This document shows, in pieces, positions 40,998-57,909 of a stretch of 64,000 nt of DNA. The position numbers and the translations under genes are program-made. The number at the start of each line of letters is the position of its first letter. The first letter of the stretch is position 1. The notes beneath the pieces were generated by a model. The model worked only from the letters and a program-made list of their open reading frames with translations, was not told the DNA's origin and made no database searches. Source of the stretch: Cenococcum geophilum (taxonomy: Eukaryota); the NCBI GenBank assembly GCA_050273025.1, contig CP158635.1, positions 16,616,001-16,680,000 on the forward strand, given 5' to 3'.

Positions 40998-41432
40998 TTT
41001 ATGAGATAACTTCAACCACCTATATAGAAAATAAGCAATACACAGAGTTTTTAGCTACATAACCTCAATTCAACACACTTGATAGTCACTTCAGAAAGTT
41101 TGAGCGTTTGGAGGCCTTGCATGAAGAAACATGAGGAGTTTGAGTGTTTCTTAGTGTGCCTGGGTGGGCTTTTGGCAGTGGGCTTGCTTCGGCCGCTTGG
41201 GTTCCCTGGATTTTGTTCAGACCGTTCACGACAGCGGTGCGCTTGATACCTTCTCATTTACTAAACCTCTTTTCAAATTATGAAATGAAGCTCTTTTCTT
41301 AAGTCTAGTAAAGAATCTCTGATTCTAGCCTCACCAGTTGAAATCCCTCAATCTGAGGACTCCGCTTTAGACACCAACACGTTCTCTGACAAAGGTGGCC
41401 GCCATAAATGTGTCACCACAATGTAGGCAAGC

Positions 41433-42478
41433 TTAGAGTAGCTGGAAGCCTCCGTCCTCATCCTTCACGAACTCATTTCGGAAGAGCTCCTTCAGCTCAT
41501 CGAGTGCCAGATTCTTCAGGCTCTGCTCACAAGGTCCACATTCTACATGCTGTACGAAGGTGCTGAATAGCAGAAATCTTTCTTTACACTCACAGCAAAA
41601 GAAAGGCCGGGGGTTCTCTCCGTGGGCCTTTTTCAAATCTTTGCCATCATAGAGGTCAAAGAGATAGTCAGGATCGATAAATGAAACACCAAACCAGGAT
41701 GCTAGTAGCTTGTTGAGCTCCATTGTGTCAATGAGACAGGGACAAAACCCGGATTCAAGATGAAGTATCATACCAGAGGCAGTGCGGTAGGTGCCATCGC
41801 AGGCCCAACAGGCGATGTTGGTGGGTGCGTGTGTGAGCATGTGCTTTTGGTTCGTTAGCTTACTCACATAAATTACATCAGTTCAGCGGCTAGTCTTACC
41901 TGCTTGCGATTTTTGGCATTAAGACTGTGCACGCCGCAGAATTCACACCCAAAAGTAGCTGTCTTATGAGCGCGAGACTTGCTCAGTGATAGGAATAATT
42001 CTCCACATCCGCCACATTGAAAATGAATTGTCTTTAAATGAACGCTCAGTTCATAGTTGTCAATGCCGTCGAATTCGCAGTTCGGGATCATGCAGTGACG
42101 ATGTCGTGATGTTTTTTCCCAGTGTTTATCGCGCGCGGCCTGGCTGGAGAAACGCCGATTGCATGTTTTGCACCAGACGTGTTTGCTTGAATTGGAAAGG
42201 TGCCTCTTCAGACCAGAGGAGGAGTAGAATGTGATGAGGCAAAGCTTGCAGCTGTTCCTGTGACCAAAAGCATTCTCGATGTGATTTTGAAGCCCATTGC
42301 GGTCCTTGAAGGGTTTGCAGCATAGGGAGCACCAGAATTTGGACGCTCTCCTGGCGGAATTTTGCTGAATCGGTTGTGCTGACCCTGTATTAGGGTCAAA
42401 TATCTGGACGCTCGCTGTATCGCGATTGTTCCCCGACTGGGGAGAGAACCTAGAGCCCAAGAGGTTGTCTGACTCCAT
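41433..42478 (-). CDS. Multi-C2H2 zinc-finger protein (~329 aa); exons 42478-41900 and 41843-41433
   Basis: Repeated CxxC...F...L..H...H units and a TASGMILHLESG.C motif. A 56-bp GTAAGA...CTAAC...AAG intron joins the two track ORFs in frame. Confidence 0.85.
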
Positions 42479-43258
42479 CGATGTGCGTACGGAGAGTTTG
42501 TTTTGTCGATATTTGTCGCCGTGATGGCAGCAAAAAGGAATCTGTCATTTTTACGAGAGGAGAGCGAATTGTGGCCTGGAGTGAGTGAAGTGAAGTATGA
42601 ACAATATTGAAGCATAAGGTGAGTAGAGTTCAGGAAAGTCTATGTGGACTGAAGTAGCATCCTACTATCTAGTGATCTGTGCAATGGCAAAATGATAATT
42701 GGGCATCTCAACTTATTGGCTCTGCCCTTATCGATAACCTTAGGACGAATTTTACCAGGCGAAGATACACGAGGCCATATTTTTATTCTCGGAGCTAATA
42801 GACCATTGGTTACTTGAATACCCCAAGAGAGAGGGCCACACTGGCTTGGCAAGAGCAGTTACAGAAGTTTCTACATAATTTGTTACCCAAGGAGCTTGCC
42901 GTGCTTGGCTGGAAAGAAATGCATTTCGGTTAGAATGGAAGAAAGTGGGGTACTTGGTGGTCGAGGGCGGTGTTCTAGGCTTTTGCGGTGTTCTTCCGAT
43001 TATACTGTATGAGCGGGGAGAAAGAAAATCCCGACATGGCAGGAGCATCTTGTGCATGATTAGCCGCCGTGCAGTAGGAAGCCATACTGGCACCGACACC
43101 ACTTACACCTACGCCTGCTGCTGCGCCTGCGCCGCATAGCCGGCCATGCGCTCCCCTCGCAGCCTTTATTTGTCCCCTTCTTCATTTTTCTTCCATCGTT
43201 CCCGCCTGGGTCGGCTTTCTCATGACAGTCGTCTAGCACGCTATGCGTTGTAGCGTTA

Positions 43259-45656
43259 TCCCATGCATTGCTGGTAACGCTGCCGGGCACCGTGCACCGG
43301 AACAATGGTTGATCCGGCCCCGGAACACCAAATGTTTCGGTAGAGTAGTAAGCTGCACCAGCCTGTACACTAGCAATGTGGCCTAAAATACGCCTGCAGG
43401 CTTCTGAATTTTAAGCTACAGTAGTCCCAGCTATAGATCTTGCTAATATAACTTGTTTTAAGTGCTCTTCCCAACATTCACCTGTCTGACAAAGCGGTAT
43501 CTTACATAGCTCACATCCAAAGTTTGTCTGTGGTGTACGCCGAGGTGCATTAGGGCTTACTTCTTCCAAAGCTACCCTCCTCCTTTTCCTTCCAGCCGCT
43601 GCACACGCCGAGCAAGTCCTTTTCTTGCCTAGCTGAGTTGGTTTAGGCCCATGTGGCCCAATTTGGATATTATTAACTCTCATAGAGGGTGTACGGTCGT
43701 CCTTGCGGATTGGCTTTGCAGAAGAGTCAAAGAGGCCTTTAATCAAGCTTTCAAGAAACTTTCTATGCCCCCCCGTTTTTGTATGGCCGCCAAAGAAGGA
43801 TGAAAGCCTATAACAATTATAAAGGACTAGATTAAAAAGGAAGAACCAAAGAGGCTTCCACGTCTTCCTTTTTGCTCGTTGAGTCGAATAATATGAAGTT
43901 GTTTGGTCAAAGCGGTCTACCCCATTCATAAAATGATTATAGAGATCTATAAAAAGTGGAATTGGAAGAACCTTAACAGCTAAGTCCCCAAATACAAGCC
44001 TTGTACAGGCTGAATTAGTTGACGTCTTAGCAGGCCTTTTTCGTTCCCTCATAATAGATTCGCCTGGCCTAGCAACGGTACTAGCAAATAGAACAACCTG
44101 GGCGTCTTTCCAAGCTGCTTGTAACACTGTTTTATTCTTTGAGACGTCCCAATATAGCTCTCCCCACTGTAGATCGTCGGTGTGATATAATTTGATATTC
44201 ATGAGCTTTTGAGAGAAAGGCTCCTTAGTGCAATTAGGGGGCGGATCTTGGGCGGGGAACTGGGTGCTTTGGCTGAGAACCTCACTGTAAAACTGGCCAT
44301 TTTGTATAAGGTTTCCCGAGAGTCCCAAGGGCTCTTGCGATGGCTCCGGAGTAGGAAGATTCTGATGATCTTGGCTGGGATTTTGGCTGGAAACCTGGCT
44401 ATTTTGGCTGGAGTTCCCCATGTTCCCCGTAGCTGCGTTCTTCCTAGGGCGGCCCCTACGCCTTTTGACGACCCCTGACTGCTTTTTTGACTCCTTTCTA
44501 TCAAGATCCTCCTCACGCTTCGTACGTGACGTACGTACAGTTCCTGCAGCCCCTATTCCTTCGCGCCGAAGGCGTTCAAAAAGCTTTACAGAAGAGAAAA
44601 GGTTATCAACCCAAACTGTATGGCGATTTGGGCAGAAGCGCGGTTGCCCTTCTTGCTTCCTTAGCAAAAGATCTAGAACCACAGCCTCTGTAGGAGTAAA
44701 ACCCTCCTTCTTCGTCCAGTATGTATCCAGTTCGTACGGGCCTTGGCCCTTAGCATGAAATAGCCAGTCAAGTACGTAGCCCTCATTAGCTAGAATCCAT
44801 ATCTTAAACCCCTCTGGCGTCGGCTTGCTGGGTATATTTACTATCTCTTTTGCCCGGCCAGTAAACCTCTTAATAGACTCATCAATAGTAAGGTGGGTTC
44901 CTGGAGTGTAATAGCGATGACAAGCCTTTCGTAGATACTCAGAAACGTCCCAAATTCTTTCAAATGGAGTGGTAAATGTTGCTGATTGGCCCGGATCTTC
45001 GCAGTAGAGGTATTGATCAATAGCTAGGAACCGATCCTTAGAAATATATTGACCAATCGGATGTTGAGGGTTATATTCATCACCCTTTTTCCAATAGTCA
45101 ACGATAGCTGGTTCTTTGTGTAGCCCCATATAAATAAGGACCCCAAAGTATGCATACATCTCTGGCCTTGATGTATCCTTCCATAGGTATATTCGGGCCG
45201 TCTTTCGTAGCGAGCGTTTTTGTGGATTAGATTTTGCTCTGGCTGCATTAGCGTTGGTGTGGTATATAAGCAGATCCATTAATTCGTCCGTAAAGAATAA
45301 TCCAAAGAGCTTGCGTGTATCTGAATCGTCAAATCCGGGGGGTAGGTTAGGCTGTCCATCTGGGCAGTCATTATGGATTGGTAGAGGGTCGAAGTGGGGT
45401 AGGGATTGATTATTTGGCAGCTCCGGAACTTTAGTACCCTTTATAATCTTTGGATAATGTGTTGCAGGCACATAATCTTCATCATTTCCTTGCTTTTTAG
45501 GGTCTCTGGATGGCATATCTCTTGCTTATTTTGACGCAATTTGAATTATAATCAAGCTGCTGGGTACACGAAAAAACCGACTTTTGGTGTTCCGGGGCCG
45601 GATCAACCATTGTTCCGGTGCACGGTGCCCGGCAGCATTACCAGCAATGCATGGGA
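43259..45656 (-). mobile_element. Complete piggyBac-superfamily DNA transposon (2398 bp)
   Basis: 74-bp TIRs with one mismatch (43259-43332 / 45583-45656) begin TCCCATGC and enclose an intact transposase ORF. Confidence 0.93.
43411..45516 (-). CDS. piggyBac-type DDD transposase, 701 aa, intact
   Basis: LFFTDELMDLLIYHTN, TIDES, IPSKPTPEGFKIW, VWVDNLFSS, GTVR, YNHFMNGVDRFDQ, and a C-terminal Cys-rich domain CSAC...CELCKIPLC. Confidence 0.93.
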   Translation of the reverse strand: MPSRDPKKQGNDEDYVPATHYPKIIKGTKVPELPNNQSLPHFDPLPIHNDCPDGQPNLPPGFDDSDTRKLFGLFFTDELMDLLIYHTNANAARAKSNPQKRSLRKTARIYLWKDTSRPEMYAYFGVLIYMGLHKEPAIVDYWKKGDEYNPQHPIGQYISKDRFLAIDQYLYCEDPGQSATFTTPFERIWDVSEYLRKACHRYYTPGTHLTIDESIKRFTGRAKEIVNIPSKPTPEGFKIWILANEGYVLDWLFHAKGQGPYELDTYWTKKEGFTPTEAVVLDLLLRKQEGQPRFCPNRHTVWVDNLFSSVKLFERLRREGIGAAGTVRTSRTKREEDLDRKESKKQSGVVKRRRGRPRKNAATGNMGNSSQNSQVSSQNPSQDHQNLPTPEPSQEPLGLSGNLIQNGQFYSEVLSQSTQFPAQDPPPNCTKEPFSQKLMNIKLYHTDDLQWGELYWDVSKNKTVLQAAWKDAQVVLFASTVARPGESIMRERKRPAKTSTNSACTRLVFGDLAVKVLPIPLFIDLYNHFMNGVDRFDQTTSYYSTQRAKRKTWKPLWFFLFNLVLYNCYRLSSFFGGHTKTGGHRKFLESLIKGLFDSSAKPIRKDDRTPSMRVNNIQIGPHGPKPTQLGKKRTCSACAAAGRKRRRVALEEVSPNAPRRTPQTNFGCELCKIPLCQTGECWEEHLKQVILARSIAGTTVA

Positions 45657-45788
45657 TAGGGTTATATTCATCCCCGGCATTTTCCCCAGAGACATCTAGA
45701 TATGTCCGCCGCGGTCGCGCCAAAACTTGTGGCAGCAAACCGTGGTAACAGTGTTACTAGAGCTGGTGACAGTTCCCGTCAAGGAGAA

Positions 45789-47090
45789 ATGGCTTTCCCG
45801 CCCCCTCCACACCCCCATCGAACAGCAAAGCCTCACCTGAAACACCAGAAATACCAGAGACACCAAAGACACCAGAGACACCGGGGACCGCGAAATGCCA
45901 GTCCTGGCTCCTATCTAGGAAATGGCTACCCATTGCTGGAATTATTACTCTCCTGCTTATTGCCATCATCTGCGCTGTCGTCGCAACGCTCCTCCATCGA
46001 CGAGAAGTGACAAGAAAAACCCATACAACACCCTAGGGTTCGCTCCTTTTAATAAGCGCTCGAAACCAACTTCCCCAATCCCGCAATTCTAAAACACAAC
46101 GGCACCTGGTATGTCTTTGCAACAAACAATACTGCGGGCGTCCTCCACTAACCAGATAATAAGACAATGGCGGATTATGGCAAATCACACGTACAAATTG
46201 CCACGCCTTCAGACTTTGACACTTAGACGCTCCACAATTATATCGAAGACCTGTTACCCACGCTTGGAGACTGGGTTGCAATGGGTTGCTTGAATGTGTC
46301 AGAAGTCAACGCAACAATTCCGTTGAATGCGCCTGCAAATAACGTCAACTCTGCAAACCCAGCCCCCGGCCCAAACGTTTGGGCACTAGATCCCCCCCAA
46401 CGACCACCCGATGGCAAATTCGTACTATACTACTCCGCAACTGCAGCAAATGCCTCGCGAAATCATTGTGTCGATGCAGCTTTGCAGACGTGCCGCAGAG
46501 CCCTTACAGCCCGTTGCCCACTCCTCTTGCCTGTCCCACGGAGCTCGGTGAGCCATCGATCCATACCCTATCATTAGCATAGACGGCACAATATACGTGG
46601 CATACAAGGTTGATGGGAACAATTACGGTCATGGAGGTATCTGCGGAAATACAGTTCCGCCTTTGGTGGATACTCCGATCCTCCTTCAACGCCTGGCGGA
46701 AGATGCTATTACGCCTGTGAGACTGCCTGTCGATGTTATGGATCGCACGCGTGACGATGGCCCTCTTGTCGAAGCGCCGACGCTTGTACGGAGCGACGAG
46801 GGTGTGCATTTCCTCTTCTATGGCTCAGGGTGTACACGTATGCCGATTTATGACCTCGAGTATGCCACTAGCACGAAATCAATGGCCCATACAAGCGTGC
46901 CTCCGGACCGTTATTGATGACGGGGGATTGGGTCCTTCTAGCATCGGGCAGCGTATCTGTAAGGCGCGATGAGAGCCGATGGCGCATGGCGTTTCATGCA
47001 AGGGTCGTGACACCATTTGGTGGTGTAAGAGAAATGTTCACAGCAGCATCGATTTTGAATGGGACGACTGCCGCTTTTGACTGGTCTTAA
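45789..47090 (+). pseudogene. Glycoside hydrolase family 43 with N-terminal TM segment; disrupted
   Basis: [62 protein letters not shown] and MAFHA. In-frame TAA (46149) and TAG (46224) plus several frameshifts. Confidence 0.88.
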
Positions 47091-47261
47091 AAACGATCAA
47101 ACTTTGCATAGGGAACGGAGTTCTTGCAGCATTTAGCCCGGCGTCTAGAAGTTAATTGTATCTCTGACAATCTGGCATATTGGTTAATTATTTTTTCAGT
47201 AGTTCCATAATTTCGTTGACAATTGGTGCTATTTACTCTTTGCAGCATCAAAACATTACTA

Positions 47262-49013
47262 TCATGGTCGTCTTGATGTTTGAAAGGCTTGTAGAACAAG
47301 TGTTCGATCGTCGTCGTACAACTTCTGTCTTGCCTCTTCTTCCGCCTTTGCTATTCTACGGGCTTCACTCGAGAGCGTCTCCCATCGTTGTCTTTCTTTC
47401 TCTCTGCGTGAGTTTTCTCTCTGATCTCTCTCGCTAAGCCGTTGTTCGAATGATACGGGTGGTTCTACTGGTAGATGTCAACGAGTTATTCTCTTAGCCC
47501 TGGAGTTACTCTCCTTACCGTTATCTGAGCTGTCGAGATCTTTTGGCCCGAAGGCACGGGCCATCCAACTATTTACGCGTTCTTTTGACTGGTTGACCCT
47601 CTGTCCCACAGGCCCAAGAAGCACAATGCGATGAACATCTAACGTCTCTGACATCTCCGAACTAGAACATGTCAAGTCGTCTAGATGTTGGGTGAACACA
47701 TTCAGGGACTCAAGAGAGTCCTCACCAATGAGAACGTCAGCAACCAGGTCCTTCAAGACGTGGAGTTCAACCATTAAGACATTGCGGTACTGCCCGTTGT
47801 CGTCTCCATTCTTAGCCAATTCCAATGTACTGTTAGATGTAGAAGCATCTTCCGCATCGCTGCCAGGCGGTTGCTCTGATGGAAACCCTCCCCCGGAGAC
47901 GGGATCAGGAGAAATAATACCCATTTCAATACCGCAGGCACCAATATACAATTGTGCGCGCACCATTCCACATGTCTGACCAATGCTGCCGTCTGCAAAC
48001 ATAACATTCATCTCTTTTGGCTCAATGGAGAAGCCTCGTTGCTGTGCATAGGCTTTGGATATGAGATCCACCTCCGAGCCACTATCAGCAATAGCCTGAA
48101 CTTCTTCTCCATCTAAAGAACATAACAGTCGTTGTTTTTGCTTTCCAATAGCCCGAACTCGAAGCCACGGTGGGGCTGAAAGGGTAAGATTGACCAGCCT
48201 ATTGCGGTACTTTGTCAACGTCTGAGTCTTTTCCAGGAAGCTCATGCACATTATGAGAGGCGATGCTAATGTCCGAAAGACATAGAAAGTGCACAAAAGA
48301 TTCGAAGGTCCGAGGTGGGACTCTGTCCCAAAACCACAAGCGGACATAGTGCGTCCGCAGCAACTGACCACTTTTCCATTTGCCATCCTGAAAGCCCTCT
48401 CTTCGCTTTTCTCGATTTGCAGGCCCAGCTTCAAAGCCAGTTCTTGAGAAATTACATTCTCTTCACACCCGGTGTCCGGGCTTGCCATGACTGTAGCCTG
48501 GCTATCACCCATTTCGAAGGTTATGGGTAATCCCTTCCGCGTCGATACTTTCGGGATTATTCGGGCCTTAGGCCGCTCTGGATTAGGTGCAGAAATCTCA
48601 GTATCAGTCCTAAAAAGTTTTCAGAAACCGATGACTGAGTTTTCAAAAGATAGATCAGATTTAACTTACCATACATGGCTGCCAATCCCTTGGAGTCTTC
48701 CATTTCTCTCACAACCCAATTCGTATATTTCCGCGTCCAGTCCTCTAATGATTTCCATTGACTTGTCAATGGAAGCTCTGAATTTATTACCTTCACGCTG
48801 CCACCGGTTTATGCGATCAACTTCTGCTGCACGACGTCGCACTTTGGTATCGATCTTTTCACAAAGCTTGCACTTCTGGCCGACTGAGACCGTTTGCATT
48901 ATTAGCTTCATTCCGCACGTCTCTCCTATCCTGTACTCCCGATTGCAATGCTGTCGGAAGTGACCCCATTTCCAATCTCCACACACGAATCGGTACTGGT
49001 CGAAGAAACACAT
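47262..49013 (-). CDS. Fusion of a Cys-rich/helical N-terminal domain with two tandem retropepsin-like aspartic protease domains and a charged helical tail (~546 aa)
   Basis: Predicted exons 49013-48670, 48609-47519 and 47467-47262, with GTAAGT..TAG and GTAAGG..CAG introns that keep frame. Catalytic-type motifs ASPDTGCEENVIS and AIADSGSEVDLIS; flap-like MANGK and FADGS; VLIGED. Confidence 0.8.
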
Positions 49014-49572
49014 TGAAATACCTTTGCCGAAAACAAAGCCGTGATACAGGATTTATAGAATCCTACACAGACTAGGCGATACAGTTCAGCATTTGTATGC
49101 ATCCTCAATCGCGTTTACTCACCAATGCCTACAGACCTTAATCTTAATACACGCTCGCCCACCGTAAAGAATGGAAGAGTTATTGAAAGTGCAAGGCTCA
49201 AACTTGACATTAGAGAAAAGCAATACGGTTGATCTGGGAGTTCTGGGAGTTTTGGGGGATAAAACCACCAGGGAGCGACACATCCAGATTCTGTGCGGAC
49301 CAAGGCAGTGTCCCATACAGCCAATCTAATTTCATCTGTGTGCTCAGCCTTGCATAAACGGAACGGGCACCCGCATAGCTCGTAGCTCACGTGACTTAGA
49401 TTCTCCAATGAAACCTTGAAAACCCGGAACCATCCTGCAGGTTGACACGGGACATCAAGTGAATCTCGTGGCTGATAAGAAACCCCGGCAGATTTGCCTC
49501 GTATAAGCAATCAGACCGGTGAAGCAGAGAGCGTAAAAGTCCGTTTCAGCAGTTAAGAACATTCAGAAAGAT

Positions 49573-50656
49573 ATGGATATTGAAGCCACAGGCATGGCAC
49601 ATCATCACTTAACTGGGTTTCCTTCTCTTGCTGCGTTCATTGCCAGTGACCAGGACAAGACCGCAGCCATTTTCAAACGCTTCGATCGCTTAGCGGCTCG
49701 CAATCTACTGCATCTGCAGAGTGAACTTGCAGAGCTTCAAGCTAGACAGGACAAACTTGATCAGCAAGAACTGAGCAGGGATCTTCAATCAAAGCAGTGT
49801 TCCCGAAACTGGGCTGACTTCTGCACCGCAGCAGCGTCGGAAGCAAGGCAAAAGGAAAGAATGGAGTTAGCTCAGAACATCAGAGTTACTCTGAAAGAGT
49901 ACCGTAAGATACTCGGCAGCCAATGAAAAAAACCTCTCAGACTCGGAGACACTAACCGGGGCAGGGAAATCACTGCTATTCGAAAGCACTCTCGCCACCT
50001 TACCGCCACCTACGAAGAGAACCCTGGAAGCTTTTCGCTGGCACTTCTTCAATGGAGACCCTACCGGACCCGACAGCTTCCCGACACTTGGTGGTCACAG
50101 CTGTGACCTCTTTGACGATGCAGATGACCTCGTGGTCCTAAGAATGGCTGAGGACCAAGACCGGTTGACTACATTTGTTCAAAACCATTTGACGTTCCTT
50201 TTCCAGGCACGCTTCCATCGAATTATCAGGCTTCTCCCACGTAACTGACCAATTTGTAGACATATACCAGGAACGGCATGATTGCCTATGCCTCCGATCA
50301 ACGCATCGCACGATTTGTAGCCATATTAAGCATCATTATCGCCGCAGTGCTGCTCATCGGGGCTATTGTGAGCTTATACGTCGTCAAGTCACCAAACAAA
50401 AAATTGGGAATGATAGCCGCCTTCACTATCGTTTTTGCTAGTAGCATTGGGATTCTTACCAATGCGCGGAGAGCGGAGTTGTTTGCTGCCACAGCCGCGT
50501 AAGTAGCGCAAATATCTTCTGTCACTTATGTGCTTTTATCCTTAGAGAAAGTTTATAGTTGATAATTCGGCTCGCAGATATGCCGCGGTACTTGTAGTCT
50601 TTGTCAGTGGGAGTTTGGGTGGAAATGTAGGAAATTCAGGCACTTCGAAGACCTGA
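49573..50656 (+). CDS. DUF6594-like membrane protein (~296 aa, three C-terminal hydrophobic segments)
   Basis: Exons 49573-49903, 49965-50206, 50260-50498 and 50578-50656; the second intron is GC-AG. Motifs GFPSLAAFIASD, IFKRFDRLAARNLLHLQSEL, LKEY, DDLV and ELFAATAAYAAVLVVFV. Confidence 0.85.
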
Positions 50657-50899
50657 AGAGCAGTTTTTACTGGCCAGATGACGTCATATGCTAAAAAAAT
50701 CTCCACGCCGTTACTTGCTGTTAGCAACTTATTACTCCTAGGTTGTGCTATCTCACTGGACTTAACTTTTTAGCAATAAATAGGTGGTATATGTTAAAAT
50801 TTCGAGGTAACTTATGAACTAATAGCGTCCCTACAATCTATTCTATGCAGTAGCAAACCAACCACTTCACGGAAGAGTAGCAGGTTAACGTCTACTTCT

Positions 50900-51980
50900 A
50901 TGAGCACCCCACAGCCCCAATCTCCAGCCTATTTATTGTGTTCTTCACCGGATTCGCTAGTTGTCGTACAGTCGCCACTTGAAGATTCCACTACGTCGCC
51001 ATCTACATCTTCCGCCACAACCTCAGGAATTTCTGTCTCCAACCATGCTGGTATTTTCCCGCCAAACAGATTCCGGACTGCGACTCTATTCTTCTGATAT
51101 CGTTCTTTGGCCCATTTTGACCGTGTATCGAGTCAGGCGTTGTACCCGACTCTGCGAGATTTTTCTTCATTGGACCGCTATGAGGGTCTTGTCCGCCAGG
51201 GGGCTGTTCACGACTACTTGTACAGCTGACGAAAGTGGGGCACTGCAATCCTCGTGATAGTCATTTCCATTATTTTCACTGTATTTATCGTCTTCATTGC
51301 CTTCATTGCCTTCATTGCCTTCGTCTTTATCATATTCTCCCAGTAGAGGTGGCGTTAGGGACGGAGATGGAGAATCCAATGGAGATGGACAAAGAACAAT
51401 CCCTTTCTCGATATTTCCGATGGATTTTCGGCGTTGGTCTGCAACGCTAGGCGGTGGATACACCGAGAAAAGCCCAGATGAGAACCGGCTTTAACGTCTT
51501 CTCAACTCAAGCTTTCCGTCAGGGACGGAAACGTGCTCTGTCAGATCCTCAGTGGACAAAATTTCCTTTTGTGCCTCTTTGGGCAGCAGATCAGCTGTTT
51601 GCTGCGTATCGGTCGAAGAGAGCTTCGCCTTTGCTTTTCTCTCTTTAGCTGGTGGCTGCATTTTCAAGTTAGCATTGTCATCCTGGGTGCTCTTGCCTTT
51701 ATACAGCCTTTTGGTTCCTGTTTCCTTTGTCGATCGTTTGTTTTGGGTTCGTGGAGGGGTTTGTGCCAGAAATACTGTCTTCTGCGGGATGATTAGGAGG
51801 TTTAGCGTTCCTCTTAGGGCGTTCAGAATAATTAAGGGGTCGTTCAGTTGCAGCTTCAGATTGAATCTGAAGGCTTCGGAACAGAACCGATCTGAAGCTC
51901 AAATCTGATTCTGACGCGATCGTTCGGTCAAGCTGACGACTTTCTAGTCTGAAGCTCCTCCGGATCGGTAAGCGCGTCAA
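50900..51980 (-). pseudogene. Degenerate low-complexity coding remnant
   Basis: Overlapping partial ORFs with K/E/S/P-rich and EGN-repeat content, broken by stops and frameshifts. No family recognised. Confidence 0.3.
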
Positions 51981-52199
51981 ATTTGAAAGCTATACCGTAT
52001 GTAGTAGTTAAACTGAGGCCCTTGGTGTTAGTTTAATAAGGAGTTCGGAGCTCCTTATTTTAAATCCAGTTTAAATCTAAAGCCCAATTAACGACTGCTT
52101 GTAATGACGACTCCACGACACCCTAATCGCGACGCTATTTTAGTCGCGCTTGTATATATTTTATAACGTCCTTATCTTAACTCTCGCGATCGCGGTAAT

Positions 52200-53200: not shown

Positions 53201-55079
53201 TATAAATAAGCAAATTTTCTAAGGAAAATTCCAAATTGCCGACTTATAGCCGGCAATTTTGTCCTTTTAAACCAAGTACTGCCCTACTACTGCCCTTTTA
53301 CTACCCTACCTGCCCTTTTACTGCTATACCTACCTTTTTACTACCCTGCTACTGCCCTACTACTACCCTACTACTACTGCTATTGCTACTATTGCTATAC
53401 TGTCCTATAGTAACACCTCTAGATATATAATATTAGTAGGTACCTCAGAGCTCTTGCTGCACCCGGCCTAAAAAGACTAAAACCAACTAAAAGAACCCTG
53501 AAAAACGCCTAGAGAATCCCCCTAAGATGCATGCATCGCAGGGGAGGCACACGTCGAACGACGGTGGTTTGTACTTGCGCGCGACCGCCAGAACCACGCC
53601 TAGCAATAGCCCTCCACAATAAAGATGGGTGAATACCACACTATAAAGCGGAAATACCTTTATTAAGAAAGCATCTAATAAAATATAAAGCTTATTAGAC
53701 GTGTTTAGTATCTAAAATTATAGGGGAGTAACTATTAGCTATAACGATTTAACGTAGCTAGTAGAATGGCTCCACCAGTTTAGTAAACCTTAGGCGCCCC
53801 TTTAGTAAACCCTTAATTAAATCCTCTAACGGCTAAGTAAAATTAAAAGTAAATAAAAACCCCCTTTACTAGCAAACCGCACCTAGGCCGCTATAGCTGC
53901 GCTTTTATAGTATAGGGAACTTAACCCCCTTAACATAATAACTGGGTATATAATTATAATATAATTAAATATAGAAAAAGCAAAGGGATTTAGGGGATAA
54001 TTAGAAATAGAAGTTCTTATAAAGATTTATAAAGAGGTCTATAACGCTGTTATAGTTTAATACCTTAAAAGTAGAGATATTAAAATTACCTTAAAGAACT
54101 AATAGGTAAAGGAACGAGCTATAAGGGTAGGGGATAGGCTAGGAGAATATATTGGTATAAAAGTACTCTATAAGAACTACCTAGTTAAAGTCCTAGTAGT
54201 TTTTATAAGCCTTAGGGTAGAAAAGGGACACTAGGTAGATAATAAAGTAATTATATAAGAGATAGTACGATAAATGGAACGCCTTATACTAGGATTTAAA
54301 ATCACCTAAATTTAATAGCTTTAGTAAGAAAATATAAACTAAGTAAATAATAAGAATAATAAGAGGATATAAGGGTTGCTAGAGACTTATTAGGGAGATA
54401 CTAAACAAATATATAGCTCCCTTATTATTAGTATATATATACTAGAAATGCAAAAACTCCTTATTTAAAAAGGAATAATTATAAACGGCCTTATATATAA
54501 TATAAGGCTCTATAACTATAGATTACGCCTAAAATAATACTATCGCTGTATATAATAGGGATACACCTAATCTATATATGCAGTATAGGTATACTATAGC
54601 TACTATACAGGTCCCTACAATATAAGATACTACTTAAATTAAGACTAAATAAAATGTATAAACTACTACTAAAGCATATATAAGGCGTAGGAGAGAGAAG
54701 ACTATATTAAATATAGGAGACGGAAGGTAAGGGCTTAATAGCTACGGGAATAACTGTACGCTAGGTTATATAAATAGAAATAATAAGTAATAAGCTAAGG
54801 GGGCGTAGGTGCCTTTTTAGCGTTCCCTACCTTTAATACTAAGGGGCTAGGCTAGCCTTCCCAAGCCTTAACGGGCTAAAAGTAATGCTATATAATATTA
54901 CTAGACTATATAGGGATATAAGGGTTATAGGGGATATAAGGGTTATAGGGGATATAAGGGTTATAGGGGATATAAGGGAGAGGACGCCCTATAGGAAGAC
55001 CCTTATAAATAGCTATAGTAAGCTTAAGACTAGGATAATTAAGAATTAGACTTAATGCGGTAAATATAATATTTATAGC

Positions 55080-57315
55080 TGTTACGGAAGTAGGCACGAG
55101 CTGGAATACAATATACTAAACAGGGTAGTAATTGAAGAAGGCTACGTACGTGTAACTATGCGTGGTTAATACAAAGACATTTGGATAAAGAAGAAGATTC
55201 TTTATGTGCCAGGTCGGGTATAAATAGGGGTTATAGGGGAACGTGCGTAGGTGTCTCGGGACGAACGTAAGCACGGGTTAAGAACGTTAAAACGCGCAGG
55301 GACGTGAGAACGTGTGAGTCCCGTGATAGTACCCCCCCCTTACTTCCGAGCTCCTGCGAGGCGTGTCGTGTATACAGAAAAAAACCTAATACGGGAAAAA
55401 AAATTCGTTAGCCCTTCTCCGCCCTTCTACGTCCTCCGTTACACAGGCTTCTCCAGTTCGGTCCTTCCATGTTTGATTGTTAGGCTACTAACTTATTAGG
55501 CCCAAAGCATAGCCTAGCTTCTATCGCCAGCTATACTTCTGTCCTCGCCGCTTGGAGACGCATTGCTGAAGCTTATATAGTCCCTTTCTCGCTTCTAGCA
55601 GCTCTACGGCCTTCCCTTCCTATACTCTAGGTCCCCCTAAAAAATTACCCCAATTTTTGGTCTAAAATGGGCGTTTTAGGCGGTATTTATCGGCCTAAAC
55701 GGCAGTATAGTACGGTCAGTACGGTGTTCGTGGTTGTGGTAAGGCATATTCTTGGCAGGTTCTTATCAGTGCGGTGCAGTATTCGTATCGTAGGCAGGTT
55801 CTTGTCGGTGGCAGTACGGTGCTAGCGTAGGTTCCGTAGGTATATCGGCACGGGATCTTATCAGATTCGGGTAGCAGTATGGTGCTAGCGACGTGTTCGG
55901 GTTCCGTAGGCGAATCGGCACGGAGCTTATCAGTTCATATGGTAGCAGTACGGTGCCAGCGACGGGGTCGTCTCGTAGGCATATCGGCACGAGGCTTGTC
56001 GGTTCGGGTAGGTAGCAGTACGATGCCAGCGACGGGTCGTCTCGTAGGCGTATCGGCACGAGGCTTGTCGGTTCGGGTAGCAGTACGGCTCGAAGCTTAT
56101 CAGTTCAGGTAGTAGCAGTACGGTGCCAGCGACGGGTTATCTCGTAGGCGTAACGGCACGAGGCTTATCGGTTCGGGCAGCAGTACGATGCAAGCGACAG
56201 GTTAAGGTATCCGAAGGCAGATCGGCACGGAGTCTTGTCAACAGGTTCGGGTAGCAGTACGATGCCAGCGACGGGTCGTCTCGTAAGCGTATCGGCACGA
56301 GGCTTGTCGGTTCGGGTAGCAGTACGATGCAAGCGACGGGCGGCTTAAGACAGTCTGGGCATCGGATGCGAATAGCTTCGGCGGCGGCAGTACGATGCTA
56401 GCGACAGATTCGGGCGGCTTAAGACAATTCGGGTATCAGATGCAGAGAGCTTCGGCAGCAGGTTCGGACGGTGGCAGTACGGTGCCAGCGACGGGTCGTC
56501 TCGTAGGCATATCGGCACGAGGCTTGTCGGTTCGGGTAGGTAGCAGTACGATGCCAGCGACGGGTCGTCTCGTAAGCGTATCGGCACGAGGCTTGTCGGT
56601 TCAGGCAGCAGTACGATGCAAGCGACGGGGTCGTAGGCGTATTGGCACGACGGGTTATCGGGGTCGTTTCGCAGGCGTATCGGCGCGAGGTCTTGTCGGT
56701 ACGTAGGGCAGTAACGGTGCAGGTCGGTAGGACAGCAGTACGATGCCAGCGCCGGGGTCGGGGTCGTCATGCAGTAGGATGCGAGCCATCAGGTCAAACC
56801 GAGGGGCAGTAACGTGCCTGTTCGTAAGCGGTAGCAGTAGGATGCAAGCCATCGAGGTCGCAGGCGTATCGGCGCGGTGTCTTGTCGGCAGGTCGTGATT
56901 CCACAGGCGTATTGGCGTGGTGTCTTGTCGTACCAGTTTAGAACCCCAGCGTCCTAGTCTACCCGCAGCCAGCAGCTCCTGTATCTACCCCGTAGGCGTA
57001 GAAAGGCATGCTCCGCGACCAGTAGCCTACAGGCCCGCCAGGTATAGAAAAGGGATCCAAATGTAGTGTCACGGAAGTAGGCACGAGCTGGAATACAATA
57101 TACTAAACAGGGTAGTAATTAAAGAAGGCTACGTACGCGTAACTATGCGTGGTTAATACAAAGACATTTGGATAAAGAAGAAGATTCTTCGTATGCTAGG
57201 TCGGGTATAAATAGGGGTTATAGGGGAACGTGCGTAGGTGTCTTGGGACGAACGTGAGCACGGGTCAAGAACGTTAAAACGCGCAGGGACGTGAGAACGT
57301 GTGAGTCCCGTAACA
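55080..57315 (-). mobile_element. Complete non-autonomous LTR retroelement (TRIM/LARD-like, 2236 bp)
   Basis: 249-bp LTRs at 55080-55328 and 57067-57315 (TG...CA-type ends) with a perfect 5-bp TSD ATAGC. A poly-G purine tract on the minus strand abuts the left LTR. The interior has no gag/pol. Confidence 0.93.
55800..56930. repeat. Internal array of two alternating hairpin motifs
   Basis: About 18 copies of GCAGTACGRTGC and about 13 copies of stem-AGGCGTATCGGC-stem, usually followed by CTTGTCGG. Confidence 0.88.
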
Positions 57316-57909
57316 ATAGCTAACTTTTAAAGGGTATATAGCTAACTAGTAAGAATAGGGGAAGAACTAAAGATAATAATAGATTTAAATATAAAAGCGC
57401 TAGTAAAAATATAAGATATAGGAATAGAAAGCTCTATATAAAATAAGTAGTAACTAGGGTATAGATATAAAAGATAGAAGTTTTAAATGTCCTAAAGAAA
57501 GTAAAAATAGAAGAAGTAAGGAATAAAGGAAAGGTAAAGGACCCTTACTAGGGGTCTGCCACCTATCTATTATATAGTATAACTACGGCAATGTAAATCA
57601 CTGTCTTATAAGGCCCTTACTAAACAGCCTAGACTTAGAGAAATACTATATCCTTACTATATAAGAGCCGTATTATAATGCCTATATATAATTAATATAC
57701 TACCCCTAAGAATTCTAGCTCCTATATAAACTAAAAGCAGCTATACGCGTATGCTTTATAATTAGTAAGGCTATTAGCCTGTCCTTATAGTTATAGTAGG
57801 CAGTTAACCTAGATATTATAGTTATAATAATCCAGATATATAGGGGACTGGTATAGATTATTAATATATATAACCCTAGGGTTAAAGGGGTCCTATAAAT
57901 AGAGAATAT

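Follow-up and report, generated by a model that had tools for sequence, protein, structure and literature searches.

Why should a retrotransposon without genes carry thirteen copies of one small hairpin, and are these hairpins kept as structures at all? The question is raised by a 64,000-nt stretch of contig CP158635.1 (positions 16,616,001 to 16,680,000 of the forward strand, referred to here as the window), which contains at 55080–57315 a non-coding element bounded by long terminal repeats (LTRs). Its interior holds a tandem array of two motifs, the B hairpin and the shorter motif A. An initial annotation, made from the sequence alone, described both motifs as covarying hairpins and proposed a repeated functional RNA module, for example a Gag-packaging signal. 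Herein, the covariation of the B stem is found to go beyond chance, beyond repeat phylogeny, and beyond what transitions of the type caused by repeat-induced point mutation (RIP) alone can produce, and it survives every control run. Compensatory base-pair changes beyond phylogeny and chance are present for the B stem and absent for motif A.

Covariation of the B stem

The B hairpin combines a 4–5-bp stem of free sequence with a fixed 12-nt loop (AGGCGTATCGGC as searched on the plus strand, GCCGAUACGCCU in the sense RNA). With up to two mismatches allowed, the loop is matched 17 times in the window, 14 times at 55838–56916, all on the plus strand, against a chance expectation of 3.43 for the whole window and a maximum of 9 among 100 shuffles. 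One of the 14 matches (56161) is linker sequence, so that 13 B hairpins remain, in agreement with the count of about 13 in the initial annotation. The seven hairpins quoted there are found in place: CTCGT/ACGAG (56041), TCCGT/ACGGA (55903), GTCGT/ACGAC (56630), TCGC/GCGA (56669), and CCAC/GTGG (56901) for B, TGGCA/TGCCA (56472) and TAGCA/TGCTA (55872) for A. Tandem Repeats Finder (TRF) detects periods of 65, 69, 100, and 170 between 55835 and 56634, and the units, anchored on motif A, measure 63, 71, 70, 65, 35, 65, 74, 65, 68, 87, 69, 65, 127... nt. The first two units are degenerate. In the units at 56315–56469, a different 49-nt module replaces B; two array units, at 56337–56459, carry it (CGGGCGGCTTAAGAC...GCTTCGGC, 82% alike) where the B hairpin would be.

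Since the unit lengths are not multiples of three, no reading frame is kept across the array, which speaks against a decayed protein-coding repeat, an outcome that the initial annotation had itself named as refuting it. Stop-free frames do run across the array, up to the 147 amino acids (aa) of the longest stop-to-stop frame in the element, but a Pfam search (E ≤0.1) of 6 of the 28 listed frames of the element gives 0 families. A module of the ribozyme or retrozyme type fares no better: no Rfam family reaches the gathering score in the window region or in seven related loci, the window matches at E ≤10 being four weak and unrelated ones, and the earlier remark that no hammerhead core is seen is borne out. 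Both a coding remnant and a ribozyme remnant are practically excluded.

Relatives were gathered by a scan of metagenome contigs in which one B loop had to come after one A motif. The scan yields 104 related loci with 690 B copies (663 distinct in their 72-nt context) and 581 distinct copies of motif A; 35 LTR-bounded elements, including that of the window, were delimited. Neither the viral contigs nor the prokaryotic genomes searched contain a match to the combined A+B pattern. Parts of the element also occur in 20 sequencing runs, listed in a run index and belonging to 13 studies; seven of these runs are recorded as RNA.

The 13 units of the window have 96.9% of the cells of their 5-bp B stem paired (98.0% for the whole scored structure of B stem and A core), both-sided changes occur at four of the five pairs, and the B stem is found by RNAalifold. 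The observed covariation score is reached by 0 of 500 shuffles, and slid partners show 18–55% pairing. Among the 663 distinct B copies, stem positions 1–5 are paired in 84–96%, and positions 1–4 are of the Watson–Crick type in 88–93% of the 129 least mutated units (local GC content at least 0.55). Corrected mutual information (MI), calculated over 672 units and 4186 column pairs, places the partners L5–R5, L4–R4, and L3–R3 at ranks 1–3. L1–R1 follows at rank 30 and the hardly variable L2–R2 at 294, and the remaining high-scoring pairs listed are neighboring columns, as expected from register shifts. Since column pairs taken from a single alignment have one and the same history, this ranking includes an internal control for shared descent.

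Shared descent was also addressed by a tree-based null, for which every stem column evolved independently in simulation along a FastTree tree, with as many changes as parsimony assigns to it. For 228 high-GC units, the observed MI is reached in 0 of 500 simulations at positions 1, 4, and 5 and in 4 at position 3; for all 672 units, it is reached in 0 of 200 at positions 3, 4, and 5 and in 1 of 200 at position 1. The method was checked on 20 stem pairs that are not partners; their observed MI was reached in 9 of 200 simulations or more, never in 0. The initial annotation had made its case depend on covariation that outlasts repeat phylogeny, and the tree-simulated null is indeed beaten at three to four of the five stem pairs. 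Its central statement, a B loop that is kept while the stem changes compensatorily, thus stands against shuffled, slid, and tree-based controls alike. The result is retained when each stem type seen in at least two loci is reduced to one row (80 rows): 85.8% of cells are paired versus 68.1% after shuffling (0 of 500), and the covariation score is 0.692 versus 0.352 shuffled and 0.09–0.24 slid. Of 47 stem types seen in at least three loci, 26 are fully paired, compared with 7.8 (maximum 16) when the arms are shuffled, and 13 are fully Watson–Crick. In these 13 types, position 5 uses A-T, C-G, G-C, and T-A, and position 3 uses C-G, T-A, and A-T.

These pair classes bear on RIP, which changes C to T on both DNA strands and can turn C-G into T-A via T.G or C.A, mimicking compensation. 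Low-GC copies are rich in such T.G and C.A intermediates. RIP cannot yield the swaps at positions 3 and 5, however, because transversion-type pair classes are present there. The claim that transversion-type compensatory swaps are not what RIP produces therefore holds for the deeper differences between unit types, where the clean evidence is found; most double changes between close copies are transitions that RIP can imitate.

Several observations weigh against a stem maintained by selection. Position 2 hardly varies, and 50 of 500 tree-based simulations (228 high-GC units) reach its observed MI. The closest sister units differ mostly one-sidedly, with 44 single versus 7 double changes in 39 contrasts and 194 versus 29 in a larger set of 154 contrasts, and the sister-contrast doubles that lead from one Watson–Crick pair to another are all transitions, so that RIP could imitate part of the signal. 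The copies were gathered via the loop pattern, which means that loop conservation outside the window is partly built in, and the same insertion assembled twice may underlie some of the metagenome loci. Units with exactly two stem differences have them at partner positions in only 2 of 6 and 7 of 26 cases, versus 11% by chance. Because close copies decay one-sidedly, the evidence for covariation rests on older differences between unit types. Inserted copies appear to decay neutrally, with constraint acting only on lineages that kept transposing.

A module without function, its hairpins being by-products of array growth, hairpin-templated mutation, or template switching during reverse transcription, with RIP added on both arms, would likewise show mostly one-sided changes between close copies and only transitions among their double changes. 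The T.G and C.A intermediates common in low-GC copies fit such an origin, as do the 12 differences between the two LTRs, all of them transitions. It is nevertheless unlikely: the module is kept in at least five families with unalignable LTRs, frequent stem types include transversion classes at positions 3 and 5, the least mutated copies pair best, and the stem pairs outrank other column pairs of the same history and beat the tree-based null. Within the window, moreover, the loop is about three times less variable than the stem, with ~12 of 156 loop cells and ~30 of 130 stem cells off the majority in an approximate hand count.

The covariation also bears on whether the array acts as double-stranded DNA, with transcription-factor sites that form an enhancer for the LTR promoter. 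There are many CGG triplets per unit, and tandem repeats inside plant LTR elements are known (Retand, cited in PMC3248453). A DNA site, however, conserves sequence and not complementarity, whereas the arms found here change yet stay complementary, which makes an enhancer very improbable.

Motif A behaves differently from B. Its consensus GCAGTACGRTGC is matched 15 times with up to one mismatch, all at 55811–56845, versus 0.14 expected, and 19 times with up to two, a range that brackets the about 18 copies first counted. In the 581 distinct copies, the core GCA...TGC is 84–97% Watson–Crick with essentially one pair type per position, and this 3-bp core shows no covariation, so that the earlier view of motif A as a covarying hairpin finds no support. 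The fourth position is Watson–Crick in 37% of these copies and in 28% of the least mutated subset, A.A, A.C, and A-T being about equally frequent. Hence, the two perfect 5-bp examples quoted above are not representative. The minus strand, on which A.C turns into G.U, allows somewhat better pairing. In all, motif A is a motif conserved in sequence that may form a weak hairpin.

Anatomy, orientation, and relatives of the element

The segment 55080–57315 is a complete non-coding LTR retrotransposon, present as a single insertion within older, heavily mutated repeats, and the non-coding LTR carrier of the initial annotation is confirmed by the LTR pair, the target-site duplication, and the lack of any Pfam-matching open reading frame (ORF) among the frames searched. 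The element is 2.2 kb long with an interior of 1.7 kb, and its GC content of 0.47–0.60 differs from the 0.28–0.40 of the surrounding AT-rich DNA. The two LTRs are direct repeats of 249 nt each with 237 identical positions. Of their 12 differences, CpA/TpG contexts account for about 8 and CpG contexts for 4; as only transitions in these contexts occur, they suggest light RIP-like mutation after insertion, not ordinary drift. Intact TGT...ACA tips are seen in the copy at 57067–57315, and the other LTR has transitions at both tips. The LTRs make up repeat family D4 of the window, in which no further copy of LTR or interior is found. Contigs from sequencing runs connect both flanks without the element (joints 55073>57318 and 55079>57328), which fits an insertion event. 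The flanking DNA is a very high-copy, RIP-like repeat and the deepest in DNA runs (summed depth 90,000–433,000). In the left flank, at 54913–54987, six overlapping copies of an 18-nt unit (GGGATATAA / GGGTTATAG) lie at 9-nt spacing. All features are listed in Table 1.

Table 1. Positions of the features in and around the element; stems and loops of the B hairpins are written on the plus strand.
Feature	Position	Strand	Remarks
Target-site duplication, left	55075..55079	.	ATAGC, identical 5-mer on both sides of the element (5-bp duplication)
LTR, 3' in the orientation favored here	55080..55328	-	249 nt; TATA 55219-55226; self-primer segment copy 55177-55186
Polypurine tract	55332..55348	-	sense strand CGGAAGTAAGGGGGGGG, then TAC, then LTR; C-run there in every array-carrying LTR family
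Unique non-coding internal segment, 3' part in sense	55349..55715	-	part of 'I5' query (55329-55800), 72-94% conserved in related loci; no Pfam ORF
Tandem A-B array	55716..56936	-	units 63-130 nt; repeat families D1-D3, D5, D10; TRF periods
Unique internal segment from primer-binding site to array, 5' leader in sense	56937..57054	-	'I3' query, 81-99% conserved in related loci
Primer-binding site, self-priming type (predicted)	57055..57064	-	sense ACAUUUGGAU, 2 nt from LTR edge; exact 10-nt complement of 57164-57173
LTR, 5' in sense orientation	57067..57315	-	249 nt; TGT...ACA tips; TATA 57206-57213; predicted self-primer and transcript start 57173-57164
Target-site duplication, right	57316..57320	.	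ATAGC, identical 5-mer on both sides
Motif A copies (15)	55811..56845	-	plus strand GCAGTACGRTGC, sense GCAYCGUACUGC
Motif A starts	55811, 55874, 55945, 56015, 56115, 56180, 56254, 56319, 56387, 56474, 56543, 56608, 56735, 56771, 56834		
B hairpin 1	55833..55854	-	TCCGT / loop AGGTATATCGGC / ACGGG
B hairpin 2	55903..55924	-	TCCGT / ACGGA; hairpin fold on both strands
B hairpin 3	55972..55993	-	CTCGT / ACGAG
B hairpin 4	56041..56062	-	CTCGT / ACGAG, exact loop
B hairpin 5	56141..56162	-	CTCGT / ACGAG
B hairpin 6	56210..56231	-	TCCGA / ACGGA, A.A closing mismatch
B hairpin 7	56280..56301	-	CTCGT / ACGAG
B hairpin 8	56500..56521	-	CTCGT / ACGAG
B hairpin 9	56569..56590	-	CTCGT / ACGAG
B hairpin 10	56630..56651	-	GTCGT / ACGAC, outer-pair swap of transversion type
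B hairpin 11	56668..56689	-	TTCGC / GCGAG
B hairpin 12	56857..56878	-	GTCGC / GCGGT
B hairpin 13	56900..56921	-	TCCAC / GTGGT
C2H2 zinc-finger frame	41873..42544		
704-aa frame with PiggyBac-type transposase domain	43411..45525	-	
Retropepsin-like frame	47478..48620		
Two DUF6594 frames	49537..50248		

The sense RNA of the element is very probably the minus strand of the window, an orientation that is strongly indicated by the polypurine tract (PPT), the pairing of self-primer and primer-binding site (PBS), the TATA spacing, and stranded reads. The plus-strand reading of the motifs in the initial annotation is thus probably wrong. A run of 7–9 C after the left LTR is found in every family and becomes, when read on the minus strand, a purine tract ending in a G-run that abuts the LTR, as is typical of a PPT. 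At the other end, a stretch 0–6 nt away from the right LTR matches, as its exact complement, a stretch within the LTR; the match is 10 nt long in the window. In 22 of the 35 elements, such a complement measures 9 nt or more and lies no further than 6 nt from the edge of the right LTR (shuffles average 5.3–6.0; the opposite junction gives 5–8). The paired sequences differ among the families (ACATTTGGAT, ACATCTGGAT, ATATTTAGAT, ATACTAAGCT, ATATCAAGGT, TATCAAGAT, and ACGTTCGGAC), and the geometry is constant. This layout corresponds, in silico, to self-priming, a mode of reverse transcription for which the element's own mRNA supplies the complement of the PBS at its 5' end. The predicted transcript start is 57173 on the minus strand, and the TATA at 57213–57206 lies 33 nt upstream of it. 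No TGG-type (tRNA) PBS is found beside either LTR in either orientation, and there are no tRNA genes in the window or in 40 loci for a comparison with the PBS. The plus-strand orientation, which had been the initial assumption, offers a purine run 11 nt from the right LTR edge and no PBS of any kind after the left LTR; it was dropped in favor of the minus orientation, which accounts for PPT, PBS, and TATA spacing across all families.

In the stranded RNA run X21, first mates map to the plus strand in every bin with depth except one (for example 88.1 versus 0), which indicates minus-strand RNA if the library follows the usual stranded convention; 523 of 556 raw reads fit only partly, as they come from diverged relatives. 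The element family is transcribed. In RNA run X10, the element has a depth of 646–86609 and its flanks 0–4.6, depths being sums over contigs and thus family-level values rather than specific to the window copy. As the flanks are the most abundant DNA in run X1 (90,000–433,000) and nearly empty in X10, carry-over of DNA is ruled out as the source of the X10 signal. One X10 contig follows the LTR to 55326 and continues with 55 nt of unrelated sequence, which may reflect a solo LTR, another family with the same LTR, or read-through. In sum, the element is a young, transcribed, non-autonomous, and, as predicted in silico, self-priming (Tf1-like) LTR retrotransposon.

Elements that carry B hairpins fall into at least five LTR families. 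The window type (window, L020, L061) measures 1.58–2.29 kb and has 5–14 B copies in nine classified copies. The second type, starting with TGTGACGGCTCG (L014, L030), spans 1.45–6.4 kb, which is also the size span of the elements overall, and has LTRs of 164–209 nt; a short variant of it (L026, L044) measures 1.5 kb. The third type (L013, L036, L039) measures 1.5–3.1 kb and the fourth (L018) 2.1 kb. Common to the families are the LTR tips TGTNACGG...CCGTNACA, the G-rich PPT, the position of self-primer and PBS, and the hairpins; the rest of the LTRs is unalignable, and a BLAST search with the window LTR retrieves only the window's own family. Clean 5-bp target-site duplications are also present in L014, L020, L026, and L038, and the identity of LTR pairs reaches 99.5% (L014). 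The number of B copies varies among elements from 3 to 14. In L066, the internal region of 193 nt contains just one A-B unit, a lead which hints that one unit may suffice; the PBS pairing at this locus is weak (7 nt). At L066 1–760, an LTR-like repeat and the 193-nt interior are followed by a second LTR-like repeat matching only in its first 69 nt and then by a C-run; this locus may represent either a minimal member or a pair in tandem or nested arrangement.

Further repeats were seen in these loci. At L053 5860–6200, L078 2300–2650, and L072 1850–2300, 2–5 B units and A motifs stand beside a 21–29-nt T-run, in a repeat that is bounded by direct repeats of 167–190 nt with other tips (TTGG...CCAA or TGTTGG...) and may be a further carrier family. 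The longer families contain extra repeated modules on the strand of B (L014 5150–5700 and 53 other loci): GCTGC-AGGCRGA-GCAGC has 198 matches in 53 loci, and a module with the core GGAGCAAAGCTCT has 66 matches in 42 loci. The outer arms of the latter appear as CTAGG/CCTAG or CAAGG/CCTTG, a matched change of the transversion type.

Function of the hairpins

An LTR element without genes needs five things in cis, namely a promoter, a primer site, a PPT, tips recognized by integrase, and a signal for entry into the particles of a helper. As the other four are accounted for, the hairpins are by elimination the candidate for a packaging signal or a combined packaging and dimerization signal. They sit just downstream of the PBS, the usual place of such signals, which is compatible with this role. 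The fixed 12-nt loop, free stem, many copies, weakly structured scaffold, and variable copy number give the B hairpin the look of a recognition site. We tentatively favor it as a packaging signal for the Gag of a helper element, with somewhat less than even confidence in protein binding and packaging; the repeated functional RNA module of the initial annotation, including its example of a Gag-packaging signal, remains the best reading, its RNA nature being argued by the covariation and its role by elimination.

How the array folds is relevant to this role. In a partition-function fold of the whole array, the 13 stems have a mean probability of 0.41 on the C/A-rich minus strand and of 0.18 on the G/U-rich plus strand, on which many pairings compete. 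As a prediction, this fits hairpins displayed on a weakly structured sense RNA. Isolated B hairpins fold as drawn on both strands. The sense B loop GCCGAUACGCCU may fold further into 2 bp and a hexaloop; such G-C and C-G pairing within the loop is predicted on both strands, and the loop variants show no covariation for these pairs. Some results run counter to a hairpin selected in minus-strand RNA. Wobble counts favor no strand at positions 1–4 (19 plus versus 20 minus), and those at position 5 favor the plus strand (32 versus 2). Single hairpins are modestly stable (z −1.1 to −3.0), and whole units are not unusual (z −0.3 and −0.4).

The preference at position 5 would suit hairpins that serve reverse transcription as structures in the minus-strand complementary DNA (cDNA), which has the plus-strand sequence of the window, or that serve dimerization of the genome, and not recognition by Gag. 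Isolated hairpins are more stable on the plus strand as well (−7.9 to −13.9 versus −6.1 to −6.6 kcal/mol on the minus strand), and for dimerization, kissing contacts could be made via the self-complementary GUAC of motif A or via a 4–5-nt match of A loop and B loop, GTAC being present in most A copies (GTACGG in 283 and GTACGA in 76 of 581). Such roles have a low probability nonetheless: the plus strand rarely shows the hairpins in the whole-array fold, the A and B loops do not covary with each other, the variants G5>A and C9>T of the loop co-occur no more often than expected, and dimerization has no need for 13 copies.

A conserved loop, a free stem, and repetition are generic features of protein-binding RNA sites, and the protein could be one of the host, with the array acting as an element for export, stability, or localization or as a sponge that blunts host silencing. 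The very high RNA abundance in several RNA runs would agree with this. Neither a particular host protein nor an Rfam match points to a host factor, however, and the sharing of the module tracks the LTR tips and PPT, signals read by the helper, which fits a helper-encoded reader better. A host factor is therefore improbable.

The reading as a packaging signal has a point against it in that no helper element with gag and pol is found in the window or in the 104 loci. The related elements L014 and L030, including the 6.4-kb one of L030, contain no Pfam family and thus no gag or pol, and the 104 loci have 12 ORFs of at least 200 aa, of which 10 were scanned and proved to be host genes or unknown, with no Gag or Pol among them. 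The search for a helper in the window found no LTR pair at 40–54 kb. A GC-normal island (0.46–0.52) lies at 41000–52000 of the AT-rich window and contains the frames of the last four entries in Table 1.

If the B hairpin is a packaging signal, it would be a protein-recognition site presented in many copies on a C/A-rich and otherwise weakly structured RNA, and through it, the Gag of a helper element would take up the parasites. Avidity would rise with the number of hairpins. The diversity of the stems would let each copy fold locally and may avoid mispairing with neighboring copies and limit recombination. It is further possible, if rather doubtful, that a guild of gene-less, self-priming LTR elements shares the hairpin as a portable, multiplied, aptamer-like module that makes up the entire signal by which a helper's Gag packages them. 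The copy number (from 1 to 14 or more) would then be an evolvable trait for out-competing the helper and other parasites, and the stems would diversify under selection so that every copy folds on its own.

For LTR retrotransposons outside yeast and animals, it is largely unknown how RNA is chosen for packaging. In the present case, the candidate is a hairpin of 22 nt whose loop is fixed and whose hundreds of natural variants amount to a mutational scan of the stem, and the packaging question is thus open to binding and transposition assays. The elements indicate that protein-less LTR parasites can consist almost wholly of repeated cis signals and that several families within one host can converge on, or exchange, one module. 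They also provide a worked case of true RNA covariation versus RIP-driven pseudo-compensation in fungal repeats.

Comparison with known systems

No hairpin arrays in non-coding LTR elements of fungi are described in the literature searched, a body of work that does not extend to most subscription journals or to repeat databases. With this incomplete coverage, no precedent was found for a multiplied, covarying, fixed-loop hairpin that is common to several gene-less self-priming families. Tandem arrays as such are known from plant Retand and Ogre/Tat elements, where they are a source of satellite DNA; stem covariation is not known for these. They resemble the present array in being located inside an LTR element and in a copy number that varies among copies (for Retand, a reference is cited in PMC3248453). 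The initial annotation had drawn a comparison with retrozymes. Both are non-autonomous LTR elements with a structured RNA module, but the likeness ends there, as the hammerhead ribozymes that define retrozymes are not found by Rfam in the window region or the seven loci.

Non-autonomous LTR retrotransposons include miniature terminal-repeat retrotransposons (TRIM), which are very small with almost no internal domain, and large retrotransposon derivatives (LARD) of several kilobases. The sizes found here (1.45–6.4 kb) fall between and across the two, and the window element with its 2.2 kb belongs cleanly to neither. According to a passage in PMC7215508, TRIM and LARD elements of plants and some animals depend on a helper and have LTRs, a priming site, and a PPT without gag or pol, as is the case here, and they are said to specify conserved RNA secondary structures. 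The window element differs by an interior that is a tandem array of one small covarying hairpin, by its predicted priming from a self-primer, and by a probably fungal host.

Tf1 generates a target-site duplication of 5 bp, the same length as that of the window element. The geometry of the self-primer PBS, which is predicted for the window element, is shared with Tf1/Tf2/Tj1, Maggy, Skippy, Cft-1, Boty, Grasshopper, and Afut1. In such self-priming Ty3-type elements, passages in PMC4600332 and PMC6934838 describe a PBS beside the 5' LTR that is complementary to the start of the element's own transcript and not to a tRNA. Unlike the Tf1 group, the window element is without Gag, protease, reverse transcriptase, and integrase. 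In lifestyle, it resembles VL30 of mouse and rat, a non-coding LTR retrotransposon whose RNA is, as a passage in PMC4859993 states, efficiently packaged by a helper retrovirus via a dimerization/packaging signal downstream of the 5' LTR. The two share the lifestyle of a non-coding LTR element, packaging being a conjecture for the window element. VL30 differs in using tRNA priming and a single purine-rich signal, whereas the candidate signal of the present elements is a hairpin repeated 3–14 times.

The design of the B hairpin recalls the operators of the phages MS2 and PP7, in which a short stem of free sequence presents a loop that is read by the coat protein and of which engineered arrays vary stems and linkers for the sake of folding. 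This is an analogy of design only, as MS2/PP7 arrays have no sequence or evolutionary link to the B hairpins. If the reading of a shared, portable packaging signal is correct, the arrays would be a natural counterpart of engineered MS2-type arrays and would contain the first packaging signal to be defined for this fungal group of elements.

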